Assembly: GCF_032062105.1 (NCBI RefSeq)
Contig: NW_026933134.1
Span: 372,001 to 436,000, forward strand
Length of the DNA: 64,000 nucleotides
Source: Saccostrea cucullata
Taxonomy: Eukaryota
Direction of reading: 5' to 3'
Shown: piece by piece, positions 24,588-40,137 of the stretch
Position numbering within the stretch: the first letter of the stretch is position 1
How the letters are laid out: each line of letters starts with the position of its first letter
Made by a program: the position numbers and the translations under genes
Notes under the pieces: generated by a model
Databases searched by the model: none
Told to the model about the DNA's origin: nothing
What the model saw: only the letters and a program-made list of their open reading frames with translations

Positions 24588-26206
24588 ATGGACAATGGGC
24601 AGAACTATCTATTGAGTAAATTTCATAAATCGTGCTCGATGACGTCACAATCAGTTTGCTTATTATGACGTTGTTAATTGTTACGTCACACTCAACAACG
24701 AAATCATTTCGCTGTGTTTGCGGTAAAAACAAATACCTCTACAAAATTTTAGCTTTTGGTGTTTTAAGGGTGAGTTTATTTAACATTTTACTATTGTTTC
24801 TTTAATAGTTTAATTATATAAGTATATTGATTGTGTTTGCCTTTAAGTGTAATTTGTATTTCTTCGCCGATCTGCAAGAAAGTTCCAAGGCACTCAATTT
24901 CTTGAAGTTTGTTCCTTTTCGTTGAAAGTCTGTTTTTAATATTTTAAATGTACTGAGTATTCCCATTTCACAGATTGAGAGGAGAAGATGATTAAAATTG
25001 GCTCCGATGAGTTTCCATTTCGACTTGAAACGTTCATTAAAAACAATGGAGAGATAGATGTTCATGCACTTATGACTGCAGATCTTGGGGAGTTTTCGTA
25101 AGTTACCTGTAGTATTATATAAGATATACAATTTATTTAAAAATTAAAGAAAAATCTTTGTATAAATTTGATAACAGCGACTTCCATAAAATCATAATGT
25201 GTATTCATCAAATAAAATGTGTACACATGAACGTCATGTTTTCATTATACAAATATACAAGGAAAAAAAATCTGTGCGTATTTTTGAAATGCATCTTTCA
25301 GCAGAGATTAATTTATTGTTTTCAGTCCAGAAGATCTTTTGTATGAATTCTACACCAGGACAACATTAGAAATCGCAGAGATGCGAAGAGACGTTAGACG
25401 GATTCGAGCTGACAACCCCAAAACGACAACAGAAATTGTGGTATATACTCTCTCATTTTATCGTTCAGTTTCAATGCATACTTTAAAATCAATTGTTCTT
25501 GCGCGTATTGCATATTTATTCTTTTTCTTACCACATTTTTATTAAAATCATATTTTAAAGAATTGAATTTTTTAAAATAGATGTTGCGTGAAGAGTGTGC
25601 AGTTACTAGATCCAAGATTTCCAAAATGGAAGAGGAACTAATTGATCTGCGTGAACGTAATAGGCTTGTGAAAGAGATCAGACATCTTAAAAAGTCAATA
25701 AAATCGGCAGAGAACACTCAGCAGCCATCAGAACTAGGCGTTACCCTCCCTAGTATTTACAACGGAAGTACTCAAGTTTTGCAAGTTAACAATCCAAACA
25801 CTTCCCAGAACAAGAGGCGCATCTCTGATTCCCAAAGTTCTCCGAACCTACCTCCAATCGGAATGCATCAGCAGTATTCATCAACACGTCGTGCACAAGG
25901 AAATAATGCGCACTGTGGAAATGCTGTTAATGGAACCATGTTTTCAAGAAACGGAAGTAAGTGTTTATATTGATACATGTATCTGCAAGTTTTCAACACA
26001 CAGATTTAATCAAATGAAATTGTCTTAGATTTTATTTTTGAAAAATTGGGATATACATTTACTATGTACGTTTAATTATTTTTTTAGATAAGCGAGTTAG
26101 AAGCTTCACCAACGCTTCGGCCAGAGAATCCGAGTACCCTCAAATGAGGACAGATGCTACACTTTCGAATCTGAAGAGGCGGCATGTACCACGAGGATTG
26201 TTCTGA
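24588..26206 (+). CDS. Small orphan gene: N-terminal coiled coil plus low-complexity tail
   Basis: Candidate exons 24588-24615, 25331-25440, 25581-25956 and 26088-26206 join in frame with GT-AG borders (LREECAVTRSKISKMEEELIDLRERNRLVKEIRHLKKSIK heptads). AATAAA near 26290. The first exon is uncertain. Confidence 0.62.
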
Positions 26207-27890
26207 TGTGGAAATTTTATATTGGATTTCTTTTGAATGTTTTTCTTCTACTATTGTGATTTTTTTTTACCGAGTGTCATTTGAACCCAAATAAAAGTTA
26301 TCTTTATCTATGCACGTTTGACGTCCTTCCTTTCGTACACCAAGGTGAATAGCTCAGGTGTACTAGGTATATAGTCTACCAAAATAGACAGGTAAAGCAA
26401 TAAAACAGAGGGGGTGCTCAGAAAACTAGAACTACAATGTAGTTCACAACTCCCCGATATTTTGAATGACAAATTAAACGACACACAAAGTTGTCATGAG
26501 GGCAAACTTCTTGCTCTCTGTGACAAACAACTAATGAAGCATAAACAACATCATTCTAAAGCTAGAGAGCAGCAAAATGCATGAACAGCAGAGTGTTGTA
26601 CACAATTCATTTTGCCATTTTCAAGTTAATCATTTTCATCGTCACAATATTTTCCTACATTTGCAAAGTTATGTTAAGAAAATCGTACCTGACATCGTAT
26701 TGTTGGGACTTCTCGCTTGGGTAGCTATTCTCTGGGGTGGGTTTGTAGGCCAGAGGTTCTAAGTTATATGACTTGCTCATCCTAGCATCAGAAACAAAAT
26801 TAATGCATATTGTGTCAATATTTCATAAGACAGTTTTGTTTCTTAGATAAATAGTAAGTATTCCGTGACAGTGATTGAACACGGTAGTCTGACAGTAGAA
26901 GGAGAAGTGATCTACTGTAGCTAATTTCTTTCGTGCCACACCTGTAAAGTGTGTCTGACTACACCTGAATAAATTGTACTAAAAAAAGAAAAATTTGGTA
27001 TCTACTACCTGAAATAAAATATCAGAGCAAATGTTAAAAACAGTAAATACTGATTTTGTGAAACACAAAGAAGGGTAAACATAACCTACCTGTCGGGAGT
27101 AGATAAAATGTCGCATACAGGTAAAAATTTATATACAGTAGGTGCAGGGTTATGCAAAGTATTTGAAGTTTATTTACCTGTTCACTTGAAAGAGAAGATA
27201 ACTGTGGTTAGTAGACTTGGAAATTTCTGTGGCGGATCGACTAGTCTACACGTATTTGTACGCGTTTATTCTCACGATTTAAATTCTAAATAAAATAAAC
27301 TAAATAAAATAAATGGAAGCATGTAAAACAAATTTGGTTTTACCTAATGCATTATATATTCCACTCACTGGCAGGTTGTTGTTGTTTGGAAAGGAGGGGG
27401 GGGGGGGGTGTAGCCAACGTTTCGTTATGTGTTGATATAATAAGACCTTTGTTCTTGTCATATCATGATTTTTATTTGCTCGTTTTTAGATCCACCCCTC
27501 CCTTTTTTTTTTAAATTATTTTTTTTTTAGTTTTAAAAATATATCTATATTTCTGATAAAATACACGTATTTGTTACAACACTTTGGTGAGTATCGTTGG
27601 TTTTATAATAGTGTTTCATAGCTTTAGGCTTTCTGAGACTTTTTCAATGCACATGGAGTGGAAATAATGTGTGGTGTTGTAAATTTTGTATTTAAGAACA
27701 TCTCAAATCTATTTATTATATAACCCATGCAATTTGAATTTTAGACCGATATAATAATTATTTTTTAGGAAATGTTTACATTTTTTTCTCCTAAACATAA
27801 AAATCAGAAACAGGTGCCCATACAATAAAGAATGCCTTTATAATGATCAGTTATTTAAATTACAATCTTTCATTTCATATAATATTAACT

Positions 27891-29396: not shown

Positions 29397-32300
29397 ATGG
29401 GGCTAATCAGAGAAAAGTACCAGGATTCGCTCTCTAAGTTTGCATTTATGCTCATTGTTTTCTTTTTGGCAACAGCTACCAGAGGTGTGTATAAACAATA
29501 CATTTTTGTAGTATTATGAAAGTTTTGATTATTAATATCTACAACTTATGTGCTATTTTCTTTAATGAGGTCTTCATACATAATGCACGTACATGTTTTT
29601 GAATATTGAATATAAATGCCTCATAATTTACACATGTATGTATAAAGTGTAAATACCTAAGTTTTTAGTATTCAGGCATTATACAAATTTAGTAAAAATA
29701 CGTTGGAAAATATTTATGTTGTAAAAAAGGCAGACAACGAGAATATGCCGATCGAAAGAGCTTTGGACAATTTATTTAATATTGATTTCACACGAGGCAA
29801 TTCTTGATAAAGAAAAAAACTATTGAGTTTTCTTCGATACTTCTGCTTACTTAAGATAAAGTTTAAGAGTATTAATTTGTTTCATAATTTTTTGCAGGGT
29901 GTTTCAAATTTGTTTTCCTTTATCAAAGTCAGAAACAGATAAAAGAAGAGTAAAAATAAATAAATAAATATAAAATAAAATAATTAAAAAAGGAAAGAAA
30001 GAAAAAGTAAGCAACTTTTTGAACAGCAAGTCTTTATTTATCAGTATTACCAGCAGTGAATGAGAAATCTCTATGTGCATTGATTTCTTTTTTTAAAAAT
30101 TGAAAATTCTTTTTTTTTTAAACTGAAAGCGAAATTCTATTCCTTATAATATTTTAAACAAGTTTTAACACAATGCTACCTTAGGCACGGGAAATTGAAG
30201 TACAATATCCAAAGTATACAACACTCATTTCAATAACGATATTTATAGAATCAAAATTTCTTTTAATATAGACACAACAGACGAGTGTATACATAGAGAT
30301 ATTTAAATTGAGTCTGGTATTTATTTTTTTCTTTAGACAACCAATTCGAAACACAAACATTTTAATCCCAAAACATATCAGTATTTAAAGTATTTCAAAG
30401 CATATTTTCTGCCGAGATTGGAAAATCCCGAAGACATTCACTCCAATACATGTCCTTTGCTACAATAAAGCATAGATATACACAAGTAAATAAAAAACTA
30501 ATTACAAATGACGAAATATGCGCACTTTTATGAATAAAACTTCTAAAACTTAGAATCTGAAAATAAATTTTCAAAACATATATTCTTTTATTTCCAAATA
30601 TTGATGATAAAAAAATTTGATATTAAAAAAAAAGTAGAAGTGAACTTTGCTGCATATTACATAGTTATGTATGCACACAAATGAACTGGAAGATATTAAT
30701 ATCTCTAAAACAAGGCCGGTTTTTATTTTTAGGAGAATGGCTGTTAGTTATCGTGTACATGTTCAGGGACCAGCTGCAAGGCATGATGGGAAGGCAAGGT
30801 GTTCAGATGCCCCCCAGCGGTGACTACAATATCACAGATCCCCCGGGACCTCTGCTGGAGACCCTGAAGCTTCAGAATGTCCACTGGTTCGTGTTGATGG
30901 CAATATCCACGTCTTTTGTTATGTACTACGGATTGGCATATGGATGGCACTATTACTATTACGTCAATCGAAGACATTTGGTACGAGTCAACGATTTAAA
31001 AAAAAAACATTTTGTATGATAGAATACAAAAATATTTGAACTTGATAGAAAACAAAGAAACAAACAAACAATTTGCTATATAAGGATCTATTTCAATTTT
31101 TCCTTGTGTAGTTTTTAACATACAAGGCGTATAAAATATTCAAGAAAATGCAAACAAGTTGATAAATAAGTTTATAAAAAGTTCTAAGTTTTTAATTTAT
31201 CAATTCGCATCATCTCGACCCTTTCCTTCAGACGTCGGAATTCCGCTTGTCGGAAAGTCCCAAAAAGTTGTTTTTCCGCTTGTCGGAAAGGCCGAGAAGT
31301 TGTGATTGTGTTGAGTAGATTTTGAATCGGAAACCCTTGGTTAGCGAAGATGACTGAACTTGTGAAATAACCCCCCCCATCCCTCAAAACTTACCGAGGA
31401 AAACTTTCTCAAAATGAGCATGAGAGTACAAACAGACTTATTCCCCATGTTAAGAAAGTTGATGATTTGTTTTTAAGGCCAAGGAGTGGAAGTGCCAGCC
31501 AGACAAATTTCTGACGCCGGAGAACGAGAGACACGAGATTCTGCTGGGATCCATGAACATGTTGATAGGTTCCGTGTGCTCAGGAATCATCGCCTGTTTC
31601 ATAATCAATGGAGGTATGATAAGATTGATTGTTTGATTGCATGTTGTTTAACGTCCCTCTCTTCAGATTTTTCATATCCATGGAGACGCCACCACTTGCC
31701 GGTGGAGAGCTACAAATTTTGTCCTATTCTCGGCACTTAGGGCCATTGAGCAGCGAGGGATCTTTTTCGTGCCAGCACCTACTGCGACACGGGACCTCGG
31801 TTTACACGGTCTCATCCGAAGAACCGGTCTCCACGTCCCACAGTTGGATTCGAACCCGCGATGTAAGGATCGACTCCTTATAATTAGCGACTCGAGAGCA
31901 GACGCTCTAAAAACTGCGCAACGCGGGCGACTAAGAAGCTCTTGTCCTATGCATAATTTTTCAAGGGTCTCTGAGAGACATTTTATTCAAATATTTGTGG
32001 TCTTCCTTGAATGTTGAAAACTGCAGTTTAGCATTTACTAAGTCTGACTCAGACGTCCATAAAAATGTTTTTATCCCAAACAATTAAATTCACATTTTCT
32101 TTCAATTTACAGGATACTGTAAGATGTACTACGATATATCAGAACGAGGCTGGGCGTACTTCATTTCCTCACTGGTGGGATTCTTTATGTACAACGAAAC
32201 AATGGCGTACTACCTCCACCGTCTCTTTCACAGACCCTGGCTCTATAAAAAGATCCACAAGATGCACCACCGGTACCACCAGCCCACTGCGTGGAGTGCG

Positions 32301-33658
32301 GTCGCCATGCACCCCGCCGAGTTCCTAATGTATCAGGGCTACCTGGCTGCAACCCCATTTTTAATTCCCATCCATGTCTGTGAGTACCTACGTTGTTGAC
32401 ACTTCAGTTATTCTAAATTTTAGAATCTACGATCACCAACACACATTGTGCATATTTTGGAAAATTAAACTGTTAAAGAAGTCTCTGAAATTCAGAGACA
32501 TCTATAACTTGACCCTCATGACTAGAACTTTTTAAAAGCAAGCGTAAAATGAATTTTAAGCAGAATTCTACAAGGATTAAATTAACTCCATGCTAATAAA
32601 TCCATTAAGCGTCTAATGGAATCACAAGAATAAAAAAGTTGGTAACAAGGCCACTTGTCGAATCATTTCATTTGTGTAGTTTTCAGTTCCGTTCTTGTCT
32701 GTGTTGCTTCTTTACTGTTCCGTTCTTGTTGCTGTACCCCTGCATGCTGTACAGTTCTGATGTACCCTTATTATTCTTTTACAGTGCCGTTCTTGTTTTT
32801 GTTGCTGTACCCCCATTATTCTTTAACAGATTCGTTCATGTTTATGTTGATGTATGTATACCTGATATTACTGTACAGTTTCATTCATGTTTGTGTTATT
32901 GTACTGCTACTATTACTTTACAGTTCCGTTCTTGTTGATGTACCCCTGTTATTCTTTCATGTTTGTGTTGCTCTATCCCTATTGTTCTTTTACAGTTCCG
33001 TTCATGTTTTTGTTGCTCTATCCCTATTATTCTTTTACAGTTCCGTTCTTGTTTGTGTTGCTCTATCCCTATTATTCTTTTACAGTTCCGTTCTTGTTTG
33101 TGTTGCTCTATCCCTATTGTTCTTTTACAGTTCCGTTCTTGTTTTTTGTTGCTCTATCCCTATTGTTCTTTTACAGTTCCGTTCATGTTTTTGGTTGCTC
33201 TATCCCTATCATTCTTTTACAGTTCCATTCTTGTTTGTGTTGCTATATTCCTACTATTACGGACTCTGCGACCATTCCGGAATTAAGATGGGAGCCATTT
33301 GGCCGTGGCAGCCACACTCATATTTTCACGACAACCACCACAAGTAAGATTACAATTCCATCGCTAGTTTTGACTTGATAGTGGATGTTTACATGTTCAT
33401 CCTGACATCCTTACTTTACATCAAACTCTCAAACAGTGTCAGATGTCTTCTGGCATACAGTGGTCTACAGTTGCATACATCACAATTAGAGTAGGCCTAT
33501 TTTTATGCATTCCTATATTTTCCAGGCATTTTCACGTCAACTTCGGCTTCAACACGTACTTTTTTGACTGGTTCCATGACACTCTGAGAAAAGAGGATCG
33601 TGTGTACGGGGAGGATAATTTTGGAGGACATGGAAGACAGTCCCTAAAGTCTGAATAG
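29397..33658 (+). CDS. Fatty-acid hydroxylase/sterol desaturase superfamily enzyme (lathosterol oxidase/C5-desaturase-like), 6 exons, about 330 aa
   Basis: Exons 29397-29484, 30733-30980, 31478-31613, 32113-32379, 33223-33343, 33526-33658 (993 nt). Complete His boxes HRLFH, HKMHH, DHSG, HDNHH, then NFG...FDWFHDTL. Confidence 0.9.
31622..31931 (-). mobile_element. tRNA-derived SINE with a Deu/Nin-like central domain
   Basis: On the - strand: box A-like TTGCGCAGTTTTTAGAGCG, box B GGTTCGAATCC, central CTTCGGATGAGACCGTGTAAACCGAGGTCCCGTGT...AAAGATCCC, and tail GGGACGTTAAACAA...(CAAT)n. Confidence 0.82.
32681..33260 (+). repeat. 45-bp minisatellite derived from the desaturase intron 4/exon 5 junction
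   Basis: Unit TTCTTTTACAG|TTCCGTTCTTGTTTGTGTTGCTCTATCCCTATTA, roughly a dozen copies. The last copy is the start of exon 5 (PFLFVLLYSYYYG). Confidence 0.92.
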
Positions 33659-34204: not shown

Positions 34205-34640
34205 TTAATTGTTGTCTTCGAAGATCTATAAATTGTCCACGTATAAATGACAGCTAAATCAATGTCAGAATTGTTTTGCTTGATATGAGTGACATTTTGA
34301 GATCTTGTTTAAGTTATACATTAAATTCATTTACATTTTGTATTTTACTGTTGTTCCAAAAATCTATGAACTGTCCACTTATGAATGACAGCTGTAACAA
34401 TGTCCTAATTGTTTTGCTTGATGTCAGTGGCAGTTGAGATCTTGTTCAATTTATACACTTAATTCATTTTTTTTTTTTTACATGTAATGTTGTATTTTAC
34501 TGTTGTCCCAAAGATCTATGAATTGTCTACGTATAAATGACAGCTACAACAATATCTGAATTGTTTTGCTTGATGTAGGTGGCATTTTGAGATCATGTTC
34601 AATTTATACATTTATTTACATTTTGTTTTTCACTGTATAA
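34205..34640. repeat. About 3 diverged tandem copies of a 140-150-bp unit downstream of the first desaturase
   Basis: ATCTAT.AA.TGTC.AC.TAT.AATGACAGCT...ATTGTTTTGCTTGAT...TTGAGATC recurs near 34223, 34362 and 34514. Confidence 0.8.
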
Positions 34641-35966: not shown

Positions 35967-38900
35967 ATGATTTTTCTGCGTCCACCAGAAAGAAAAGCTA
36001 CTAAAGTTCGACGGAAAAGAAAGAAACCGCCGTCGGAAAATGACGAAGGACTCTTCATGGGCTTCTTACAAACACTGCTTAATCTGGGATTTATCATCCT
36101 TGTTTTCACCATTGCATCCTCAAGAGGTAGGATCATATTTATTATCCATACCAGCTGAATGTACGTACATGTATTTTATTGGCCACGGCGCTTTCCTTGA
36201 ATTATTAATGGGACGTACAGAAGCTAGTTAATTTTTACCCTTTACAAGGAAATCGATGTATGGCACATGCAATGCTGTTTTTAAAAAAAAGTTGGGAGAG
36301 GAACAGCTGAATCGCAACAGTCAGTCTGAAGTTTTCCATGTAAGCTGAATACATCAAATGCTTCTGAGTAGTGTTGTACTCAAAACAAATATAACTCGGT
36401 AGCTTTCATACATATAAGACTACAGAAAAGAACTACTAACTTGGGTAAAGTATCTGTCTTTCATTTATTTCCAAGGAACTTGTCCATGCAGTAACTGTAT
36501 ACATATTTAGGTCCTCCTTGGTCCAAACTTCGGTGTAGGACAATAATAAAATAAGCATACATGTACGTTTTAAAAACTCGTCAACATCATTAATAATCTT
36601 TTAAAACTTTATTCATGTAACAAGTGTAGTTTGATTTTTATTATTCGTTACAATTCAATAACACAAAGAATATTAGATACAATGTATACATGTATGCTGC
36701 AATAGAAGGTTTTTGTGGTAATCATTTCCTAAAACCATTACTATCAAAATTCATCCAATCAGATTCAAAATACCAAATTAAATAAGATATTTGGTCACAA
36801 TTCCTTTTATATCCATTTTCCTTGAAAGAAAAGAACCCACAGGATCATCTGTCACATTTGGATGTTTTAATGACTACTAGATCTGTAGACAATAAGGACC
36901 AAATAACAACTAAATTTTATCACAAACGAGCTGACAGCTTTTTCATTGTTAACTTTCCTGATTTATGTAGTAAGATGCTAACACATGCTTAATATGTTAG
37001 CACCTCCCAACTTATTCAACATTACTCAAGAGCACGCTTTAAGTACGAACAATTTTTAGACTGGGACAGGTTTCTGACAAATAAGTTGATCTTTCAGGAT
37101 TTCAACAACCTTGTTTAAAGCAATCATTTCGTAGGTTTTTTTGGTTGATAAATGACCCTGTATACAGAATACATGTAATATTTATCCTATCACATATTTT
37201 GGATTATTTCTTGTCGCCTATCAGTTGATGTTAAACCTTTGTATTTTCAGATAAAGAACAAAAATATTTAAGCTAAGACCCCATTTTGGTTCCTGATTTG
37301 GGGTGTTTTATAGAATGATCCAACATTTTATCAATAAAATCCTCTTGTTACCTCTGCACAGAATGAGTATTGGTTCTACTGTATGGGATATACAAAGATC
37401 ACAGGAAAGTCAAAAAATATGTGAATTTCCAAATTTTCACAATTTTATACAATTTTCATCGCTTTTAAGGCACAATTTGTTTTAGAAAACATGGAGCACA
37501 AACTTGCCTATCAACCATATTTATATATTCCATATACACTGTACTAGTATGAGATGTGGCTTGTTTAAAAAAAAAATCAGATAGGCAAGTCTGTGCTCTA
37601 TCCTTTCCGAAGTGAAAAGTTTCTCGAATATGACGAAAGCCCACCAGATATGAGGAAATTCGGAAAAATCTATTTCTGCATCCTTATATGACCTCCGTGA
37701 AAGCTTTCAATCAAAATTAGTACTGGCTTGAAAACGAGCATTACAAACTATCACAATTTCATATCAAATAAGGGACCAAATTTGGCCCTAACCATAGCTT
37801 GTCCTTTGACTATACGTAATGTTCCGTATGCCCGTTCAATACACATAGGCCTTACGACTGTTGTGACCAGTCAAAAGGTGTCCTATAGGCACAGTAAGGC
37901 ACATAGTCTAACCTCTGGAATTTCAGGGGCTCTGTGTTCTATGATCTGTTCACAGATTTGTATTTTTTGGTAGATTTTTTTGTGATCGATCAGTTGTCGT
38001 TTTCTTTTTTTTCAACAGGAGAATGGATCTTAGACGTTATTCAATATTTCCAAAGCAAAGATAACACAACGTTTTCTATCGACGAATACGTGTATATTCC
38101 TAACATCCAGTGGTCCGAGCTCAAACCAAGTCAGAGTTTACCTAAGTTTCTCCTCTACTCGGCGTTTCTCTCAGTTGTCGTGTACAATGTGTTGACTGGT
38201 CTATGGTATTGGCTTTTCTATAGTGGTAAACAACAAAAGGTAACTTTATGCCAAAGGAAAATCTAAGTCCATGGCCAATTTTTTTTTCATAACTATGTCG
38301 CTCATAAAAATATTTGCAGTCCTTTACATGTACAGATGTATAGAACCCATTATTAAAACTTCAACTAGTAATAAGTGTCATCTATTTTTTGAGAACTTAT
38401 TTGAGAAAAACTGGTTCGGTCATATAAAAGGAATGGATTCTTATTTATTATTAAGATTTTTTTTCTACGAGAGATTTTAATTTTTTTATCTTTTCACAGG
38501 GTTTTGCGGACATTGAAGAAGATTCTACAATATTTAATGACGTTATTCTCAGTTCCTTCAATATTTCACTGGGATCTGTAGTTTGTGCTCTAATATCGTG
38601 GTACATTCCGATTAAAAGTATGTACAATGAAGCTAGTATAATACAATATTGTATCGTTCTTCAATCTTTTAAATTAAAGCAGTCATTTCTAGTTTGATGA
38701 AACTCCTTCTCTTTAAATCAATACGAGTTGTGCTTGAGTTATGCCCCATATTTGAATCTTGACGCATTTTAAATCTTAATTTCTTTCACATTGATAGGGT
38801 CAACTATAGACTTTTTAACTATTTTTTTTTTTACAGCGTATGCCTTCTTGTATTATGATATTTCAAACCGAGGCTGGTTATACTTTTCTGTGTCAGTTCC

Positions 38901-40137
38901 TGCGCTATTTCTTTACCATGAAATTATGACTTACTATCGACATAGGACTTTCCATTCTTCTGTAATGTATAAAACTATTCATTATTGGCGCCACTGGCCT
39001 AAGCAGACGACATGGAGCTTCTGTGTAATCCATCCTGTGGAATTAATTATTTTGGTGATGCAAATCATTCTACCCATTTACCTGTTCCCTGTTCATATTG
39101 GTAAGTACAGGTATATCATGGTCTACAACAATAAAATTCATTCTTTAACGAAGTTGAAAGACTTCTTGATTTGCAGCGCCTCATCAAAAGAGTGGTGCCT
39201 GTTTTTAAAAAATAAATAAGTAAGCTAACAGTTTGGCTAGAAGACTCGGAATATTGAAAAGTGGAACAAATTAGATATATTTTAACGCGCAAATATCTCC
39301 AAATGTCTAAATTGTAGAAGATTAAACAGATATGCATCATTCTAGTTATGAAATTACAAATCGTTTTTTAATTGGTATCAACTGAAGACAATTCTTCGGA
39401 TTTTCGTCATGATGTTTGGGATCTAACGAGTTTAAGTTATATTTTGTATAAGTTCATATATATTATCATTATTTATATATCATAATTGCATTGTATATTT
39501 CCAGCTCTTTATATACTGGTTACAACATATGCCATATACACGGATTTAATGTTTCACTCCAACAAAAATGTCTTTCAACAGATTCATCGAAAGTAAGTAA
39601 TTTTACCTTCTCTCCTTTCACAAAGCAGGTATCCCAGATGCATTGTTGCAAACTTTCCATATTAAAAAAGTGGATGTCATAAGCATTTATTATAGTTTGC
39701 AGCTAACTGTAAAGTTTCACGTTACGTCACGATCTAGTTGACAGCTGCGCTCAAGTTAAATTGTACACGCCTCCTAACCGTAAGCTTTACGACTGGAACT
39801 TTCTTCTTATCCCTGATTGGTTGCTCGTACAACAGACTATTTCCGTGTCAATGTTGATAATTTGAGTTGTACAATCACGTGAATTGTTTACGCAGGATGC
39901 ATCTGACGAAAAGGATCGTGACGTAACGTGAAACTTTACAGTGAGCTCCAAACTATAATATCATTTTATCATATTAAAATGGTTTTTATACTTTGTAGAC
40001 ATAAAAACGTTAATTTTGGAGCGAGCACCATGTTGATGGACTGGGCTTGTGGAACACTGAGACGTGACGTATATGACCAGTCAGTGTTTACTGATCCGGG
40101 TACTGTCACCGGGGGAACTAGTAACAAGGAGGACTAG
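35967..40137 (+). CDS. Divergent tandem paralog of the desaturase, 6 exons, about 329 aa, degenerate His boxes
   Basis: Exons 35967-36126, 38019-38239, 38500-38617, 38837-39100, 39505-39592, 39999-40137 (990 nt). Same intron positions and phases as the first copy (RG|EW, YYDISxRGW, P(I/V)H|, K|HxxVNFG). Confidence 0.85.
36940..37150 (+). mobile_element. Decayed retroelement fragment (Penelope-like RT C-terminal region); related pieces near 41385-41660, 42370-42480 and 60280-60470
   Basis: Degenerate IVNFP.LCS...SQLIQ..RA...YEQFL...LTNKL..Q coding remnant. The 60299 ORF reads YARACSKY...LLTNKL. The family assignment is from memory of bivalve repeats. Confidence 0.55.
39688..39960. mobile_element. 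MITE with ~47-bp near-perfect TIRs in intron 5 of the second desaturase
   Basis: TATTATAGTTTGCAGCTAACTGTAAAGTTTCACGTTACGTCACGATC ... GATCGTGACGTAACGTGAAACTTTACAGTGAGCTCCAAACTATAATA (2 mismatches). Confidence 0.88.

Follow-up and report, generated by a model that had tools for sequence, protein, structure and literature searches.

Tandem copies of a splice acceptor in intron 4 of an oyster fatty-acid-hydroxylase-family gene: a probable mirage minisatellite

In the oyster Saccostrea cucullata, intron 4 of a fatty-acid-hydroxylase-family gene ends in about 11 tandem copies of its own junction with exon 5. The window analysed is a 64,000-nt stretch of contig NW_026933134.1 (assembly GCF_032062105.1), and all positions refer to it. 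With a probability of roughly 0.8, the intron 4/exon 5 junction has been duplicated in tandem to form a mirage minisatellite that is lineage-specific and tolerated, and the array is not a control switch.

The host gene lies on the + strand, and its six exons encode a 330-aa protein. Its transcript evidence comes from Logan contigs of other individuals or species (24 runs, word share ≤0.10), whose exons are 91–98% identical to the window. Contigs were compared from six of the 24 runs, X2 and X7 on the exon-5 side, X8 and X17 on the exon-4 side, X3 and X6 on both, and the comparison covered the array on both sides of its core at 32901–33177, in which a 46-bp unit at 33131 lies. X3 is RNA by guess, X7 is labelled 'DNA?', and contigs drop rare forms. 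The exon layout is as follows.

29397..29484, + strand: coding part of exon 1, from the ATG, with a GT donor; the spliced model aligns end to end with homologues
30733..30980, + strand: exon 2, with AG/GT ends; homologue alignment
31478..31613, + strand: exon 3; homologue alignment, joined to exon 4 in X3, X8 and X17 contigs
32113..32379, + strand: exon 4, with His boxes 1 and 2 and a phase-1 GTGAGT donor after 32379; PF04116, homologue alignment and contig joints
32380..33222, + strand: intron 4, 843 nt; joint of exon 4 to 33223 in X3 and X7 contigs
33223..33343, + strand: exon 5, 121 nt, with the authentic acceptor at 33223, a predicted helix and His box 3; homology, contigs and structure model
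33526..33658, + strand: coding part of exon 6 to the stop, apparently the last exon; GT..AG joint 33343–33526 in X3 and X7

Beyond exon 6, the joints listed for these relatives' contigs contain no further skip up to 34300. The exon-4 frame matches PF04116 with 54.7 bits (Pfam cut-off 31), and the gene resembles this family in its three His boxes, their conserved spacing and its full-length alignment. Boxes 2 and 3 are separated by 71 residues, and the His columns are invariant across 60 homologues. The protein is identical to Saccostrea echinata LOC133183016 at 305 of 330 positions (92%) and, in an end-to-end alignment, to Ostrea edulis LOC125646238 at 269 of 330. The homologues are labelled lathosterol oxidase-like, methylsterol monooxygenase-like or uncharacterised; because these names are inconsistent, the 'desaturase' of the earlier note is a family label only. 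Another gene of the same genome assembly, G000 (L004/L005, ~30% identical), is presumably nearer to SC5D. The search for relatives with solved structures gave 0 hits, and a further search returned no match at E≤0.001, Scs7p appearing only at E 5.7. In the predicted structure of the 92%-identical S. echinata protein (P0123, pLDDT 90), the intron 4/exon 5 junction corresponds to the start of helix 245–262, after a four-residue turn.

Several other elements surround the gene. A tandem paralogue at 35967–40137 (+ strand) has the identical six-exon layout, an intact frame and degenerate His boxes 2 and 3, and from its sequence it is possibly a catalytically dead family member; its intron 4 carries no array. 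Intron 3 of the host contains, at about 31625–31935, a very high-copy short element, SINE-like by appearance, that is matched by thousands of contigs from all four runs, RNA runs included. Downstream of the stop, a 152-bp two-copy repeat (34338–34637), probably in the 3' UTR, has related copies in X2, X3 and X6 contigs. Upstream, exon-like open frames of a different gene (about 25581–26762, + strand) encode a coiled-coil-like stretch and a hydrophobic C-terminus; the one frame scanned gave no significant Pfam match.

The repeat unit corresponds to positions −11 to +34 of the junction at 33223, that is, the last 11 nt of intron 4 and the first 34 nt of exon 5, in agreement with the earlier note, which had described it as the intron end, CAG and about 34 nt of exon 5. 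The 12 AGs named there are all present: the real one and 11 upstream CAG decoys from 32687 to 33177. They are distributed over the following parts.

32681..32955, + strand: degraded 5' part of the array, with decoys before 32687, 32755, 32785, 32830, 32879 and 32924 and a TAG before 32680; 4–9 of 23 bases differ from the real site
32956..33222, + strand: homogeneous core, with decoys at 32996, 33041, 33086, 33131 and 33177, the same as the real site from −11 to +4
33212..33256, + strand: parent unit, with no stop triplet in any frame

Tandem Repeats Finder (TRF) delimits the 45-bp array at 32769–33258 (11.2 copies, 78% matches) and its core at 32956–33258 (6.7 copies, 92% matches); degraded copies extend back to ~32681. 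Consecutive acceptors are spaced by 68, 30, 45, 49, 45, 72, 45, 45, 45, 46 and 46 nt, exactly 45 in five of the 11 intervals, and in each of the last two units, both of 46 bp, the extra base lengthens a homopolymer. Core units are 92% alike and include a 63-bp exact repeat, whereas the 5' units and the authentic exon copy diverge. Copies occur on the intron side only, and their difference from the real site grows with distance from the exon: over −20 to +3, the five decoys from 32996 to 33177 differ from it at 1–2 of 23 bases, the remaining six at 4–9. The count of about 11 copies in the earlier note is thus accurate, but its term 'near-identical' applies to these five decoys alone. In the genome, a search that skips simple repeats matches one locus, with no second copy. 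The unit spans an intron/exon boundary, intronic copies keep the AG, and the inner units are homogenised while the boundary units diverge, all of which are traits of mirage minisatellites. Slippage or unequal crossing-over in a single oyster lineage likely gave rise to the array, whose core would have continued to be homogenised.

Independent DNA runs of two other organisms contain the array. Array units are found in X2 (organism A) and X6 (organism B), one of them similar to the diverged unit near 32860, and surplus contigs accumulate over the unit (in X6, 42–66 against ~7, a depth that gives no copy number). In a 283-base X2 contig, array units lead into exon-5 sequence that is unique, with the last decoy 45 nt and the previous one 91 nt from the real AG; these distances were counted by hand, and assembly within a repeat can yield a contig of mixed path. 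X2 and the window have units of different length and sequence, no contig spanning the array. Five Logan proteins (P0003, P0138, P0140, P0141 and P0143) read through an intron 4 of ~250 nt, 83 codons, with no repeated unit; the exon-4 tail of these proteins matches Crassostrea/Magallana proteins, from which the organism is inferred. In this more distant, array-free oyster the spliced orthologues are full length. The comparison with other oysters that the earlier note proposed therefore divides, the array being present in X2 and X6 and absent from the more distant oyster, and the array likely arose in one oyster lineage before the split of the lineages sampled. That it is common to several lineages could also be explained by selection.

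The way in which the last AG is selected would make such an array harmless. The spliceosome would likely pick the copy nearest the exon-5 donor, with exon definition acting across a 121-nt exon from the real site, against 167–657 nt from the decoys. This positional choice is suggested by the five nearest decoys, which share the real site from −11 to +4, and by the yUnAy motif at −37/−38, which is not unique. A yUnAy motif at −37 to −41 also precedes five decoys, and another decoy has one at −25; the last X2 unit lacks its A. A sequence mark unique to the real acceptor was accordingly sought with no decisive candidate. RNA structure that would hide the decoys was rejected as well, the predicted folding being weak (about −0.14 kcal/mol per base, computed without a shuffle control). 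The ancestral upstream intron sequence now lies 540 nt from the AG in use. The 5'-most copy would keep this ancestral intron upstream, and the AG in use would draw its upstream signals from exon-derived repeat sequence.

Contigs of relatives show which acceptor is used. A 1184-base X3 contig contains exons 3–6 with no letters between exon 4 and 33223; exon 4 occupies its positions 654–921 and exon 5 its positions 922–1042. The X3 records on the exon-4 and exon-5 sides are equal in length and depth and are therefore taken as one contig. A 266-base X7 contig has the same joint of exon 4 to 33223, although exon 4 contributes just 13 letters to it, and continues across the GT..AG joint into exon 6. 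Both informative RNA-like runs (2 of 2) thus join exon 4 to 33223, and the earlier expectation of a spliceosome that skips the upstream copies is supported in these relatives. X8 and X17 cover the exon 3–4 joint only, the listed X8 piece ending inside exon 4. No joint to a decoy occurs among those listed for the relatives' contigs, an assembly type that drops rare forms. A further 164 joints and 1265 loose ends on the exon-4 side, where the high-copy element of intron 3 dominates, and three loose ends on the exon-5 side stand outside that list, and a low-level joint to a decoy may be among them. Pieces of the array in X3 have depths of ~2–6 each (summed, ~20 in one bin), and a piece of intron 5 has 2.8, against 33 for the spliced contig. 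These low depths suggest unspliced RNA or DNA as the best reading of the array pieces; an origin from decoy use is also possible.

Nonsense-mediated decay (NMD) acts on transcripts whose stop lies more than 50–55 nt before the last exon junction. Among the eight frameshifting decoys, six (within 32879–33131) lead to a stop in exon 6, 62 nt beyond the final exon junction, and two place it where decay would be expected, 583 nt (32687) and 57 nt (33177) before that junction; this count takes exon 6 as the last exon and a 50–55-nt rule that may not hold in oysters. Junction-based NMD would therefore not remove the products of six of the eight. Since most decoys would not be NMD targets, decay would not by itself account for their absence from the contigs. 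In X2 the nearest decoy, at 45 nt, is in frame, so that frame-based decay would not hide its use in organism A. Leakage to the nearest decoy is probably low. The earlier proposal that copy number could tune productive versus NMD isoforms is not supported.

The rival reading that survives best makes the array a splicing dial, in which the number of units or their 45/46-bp state sets decoy use or exon-5 skipping and lowers the dose of active enzyme, most products being frameshifted forms without His box 3 that are not NMD substrates. Five decoys that match the real site exactly between −11 and +4, different unit lengths in the window and X2, and the low-depth array pieces in X3 are compatible with it, and a published model exists in the ABCA7 VNTR, whose length affects isoform abundance and where retention of one unit occurs (PMC5954066). 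The reading is nevertheless unlikely and finds no support in the oyster locus, since X3 and X7 show the normal joint only among the joints listed, of the eight decoys that shift the frame, six lead to a stop in the last exon, and such arrays recur in unrelated genes of the same genome. In F7, moreover, pseudo-sites are silent while the first site is intact (PMC1557585).

The reading frames across the array were described correctly in the earlier note. The exon-5 frame is open at 32646–33347. Starts at 32755, 32785 and 32830 are in frame and stop-free, adding 468, 438 and 393 nt (156, 146 and 131 codons), and the other eight listed upstream acceptors shift the frame; a fourth in-frame, open AG at 32680 (TAG, 181 codons) was absent from that earlier list. 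Removal of the two additional bases from the last two 46-bp units, as also foreseen there, would place seven acceptors (32879–33177) in the open frame. The assignments therefore depend on two homopolymer bases, and the last unit of a relative (X2) is 45 bp long; the set of in-frame decoys either differs between lineages or alleles or rests on sequencing error.

This dependence gives rise to a variant of the dial that is less probable still. Single-base slippage beside exon 5 would switch the nearest decoys from an in-frame state (45 bp) to a frameshifting one (46 bp) or back, and alleles would set the shares of the normal membrane lipid enzyme, of a form whose helical hairpin is longer by 15n hydrophobic residues, or of a form cut before His box 3 that escapes junction-based NMD. 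If true, this slippage switch would be an acceptor-side counterpart of the ABCA7 VNTR and could be genotyped in farmed oysters. The locus would gain greater weight only if allele length or unit frame altered the dose or topology of the enzyme.

The openness of the array carries no signal, because the parent unit is free of stops in every frame. Over the core, the two remaining frames have no stop either, and of the five stop triplets in the array none falls in the exon-5 frame (P ~0.13). A dinucleotide shuffle gives P 0.014 for the open frame, but shuffling breaks up the unit and the null is the wrong one. Selection for the open frame was thus considered and set aside. The exonic part of the unit encodes a hydrophobic helix and is in consequence U/C-rich, AG-free and stop-free, which would make every copy resemble a good acceptor and keep the frames open. 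For annotators, such arrays are a warning, as they make long hydrophobic open frames through composition alone.

A further reading, very unlikely, takes the in-frame decoys to produce isoforms with extra hydrophobic segments (15n, or 131–181 residues) between the two helices before His box 3. The open frame fits it, as do the in-frame nearest X2 decoy and the position of the junction at the start of helix 245–262 after its turn in the P0123 model. The inserts have a mean hydropathy of 1.7–1.9 and 2–4 charged residues, so the earlier description of hydrophobic inserts is right in substance; they read mostly in a shifted register, though, and not as repeats of the 15-codon unit. The openness follows from the stop-free unit, and in the window the decoys in frame are those of the distant, degraded part (4–9 mismatches; exons of 514–589 nt), not the same set as in X2. 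All 130 homologues that have both motifs space boxes 2 and 3 by 69–73 residues, none with an insert; 149 proteins were compared, 19 of them without one His motif and mostly fragments or intron read-throughs. The repeat peptide has 0 matches among 30 candidate proteins, which is weak evidence. The variable membrane segments proposed earlier thus gain no backing from the homologues.

An equally improbable reading, built on sequence composition, keeps the array for some other role, for example as an extended U/UG-rich stretch on which RNA-binding proteins could land and aid exon-5 inclusion. The array is 72% T+C (417 of 580), persists in organisms A and B and places exon-derived repeat sequence upstream of the AG in use, yet the more distant oyster splices an array-free intron and the units turn over between lineages. 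An assembly artefact, named in the earlier note as a way for its reading to fail, is scarcely credible: wrong homopolymer lengths are common in long-read sequencing, each of the two added bases in the 46-bp units extends a homopolymer, the base at 33194 is missing from one X6 contig, the last X2 unit has 45 bp and the runs found include none from the individual of the window, but independent DNA runs (X2, X6) hold the units, these carry graded substitutions, and the doubt is confined to two single bases and does not extend to the array.

Duplicated acceptors, as the mirage reading would have it, are not restricted to the host gene. A second array, with a 75-bp unit, precedes an exon of a paralogous fatty-acid-hydroxylase-family gene, which is taken to be SC5D-like, and is present on two contigs.

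L008:7559-8232 (G000:C15857): 75-bp acceptor array, 9 units
L010:3722-4188 (G000:C20622), minus strand: 75-bp acceptor array, 6 units

The two contigs share blocks 87–96% identical and are allele-like, and the array units are homogenised within each. The decoy units are in frame but carry an in-frame stop. A 1.0 Mb sample, in which two contigs were chosen for these genes and not at random, contains 103 arrays. Among the 56 with a period up to 100, a strong donor motif occurs in 6 against 1.6 expected (P=0.0045), two of these six (L085) having related units; the acceptor motif is not enriched (3 of 56 against 2.0 expected, P=0.32). A heuristic for acceptor arrays caught three of three known arrays and flagged 6 of the 103; three of the flagged arrays are members of dispersed satellite families, and the sample yielded no confirmed case. 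The locus-specific arrays with donor motifs are the following.

L042:184-827
L085:4128-5135 and 8838-9019
L096:3895-4086 and 9452-9688
L097:5300-6503, with donor motifs on both strands
L099:4965-5347

Several of them start where an exon-like open frame ends, and they are likely donor-side mirages. The array in L099 begins at the end of a HAP1_N match (E 3.6e-12), which confirms one donor-side case; the other four of the five donor-type candidate exons have no Pfam match. Satellite arrays inside the window, at 3576–4441 (156-bp) and 5903–7164 (166-bp), recur at 8 and 19 other sampled loci and represent dispersed families.

The closest known systems are the mirage minisatellites of amphioxus. 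The globin gene BflGb6 carries an acceptor-side mirage array with normal splicing and with 6 and 3 units in two haplotypes, and somatic instability is reported for the mirage in Adh3 (PMC3087553); mirages also occur in Adh/Adh3, troponin C and PGBD5 (PMC3902484). As in amphioxus, the oyster array repeats the 3' end of an intron together with the 5' portion of the following exon in tandem, many copies keep the AG, and a homogenised middle is bordered by diverged units (PMC3087553). Splicing appears undisturbed in amphioxus, and the oyster joint is normal in the X3 and X7 contigs, which are from relatives only (PMC3087553). The 45-bp unit falls within the 10–72 bp reported for Adh3, and its ~11 units compare with 3–6 units of 150–160 bp in BflGb6 (PMC3087553). 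Unlike in amphioxus, the exonic part of the oyster unit encodes a hydrophobic helix, contains no stop and resembles a pyrimidine tract in its own right. A literature search, with subscription journals mostly outside its coverage, found no oyster case of a splice-site minisatellite; the present array brings to oysters a repeat type that has been published but is little known, and there it recurs within one genome.

In the 37-bp VNTR of F7 intron 7, functional donor copies are unused and the exon-adjacent site is chosen by position, as shown with 50 constructs, and the pseudo-sites stay silent even where some would keep the frame (PMC1557585). Early experiments with duplicated sites, cited in that report, disagreed among themselves and include use of the intron-proximal copy, so the positional rule may not always hold. 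Both systems place copies of the same splice site beside an exon, F7 repeating the donor and the oyster gene the acceptor; the rule of the exon-adjacent site was established by constructs in F7 and would apply in the oyster on the evidence of contigs (PMC1557585). The oyster array is in this sense an acceptor-side mirror of F7 and a natural test of 3' splice site choice among identical copies, and it has the further feature of an active AG separated from its ancestral upstream intron sequence. The 25-bp VNTR of ABCA7 intron 18, with 12 to ~427 units, is likewise a minisatellite anchored at a junction, its unit containing a splice site, on the donor side where the oyster array is on the acceptor side; isoform changes were measured in ABCA7, whereas the oyster array is known from the genome and from relatives' contigs (PMC5954066). 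In conclusion, the oyster array is a further case of the repeat type published for the amphioxus mirages, F7 and ABCA7.
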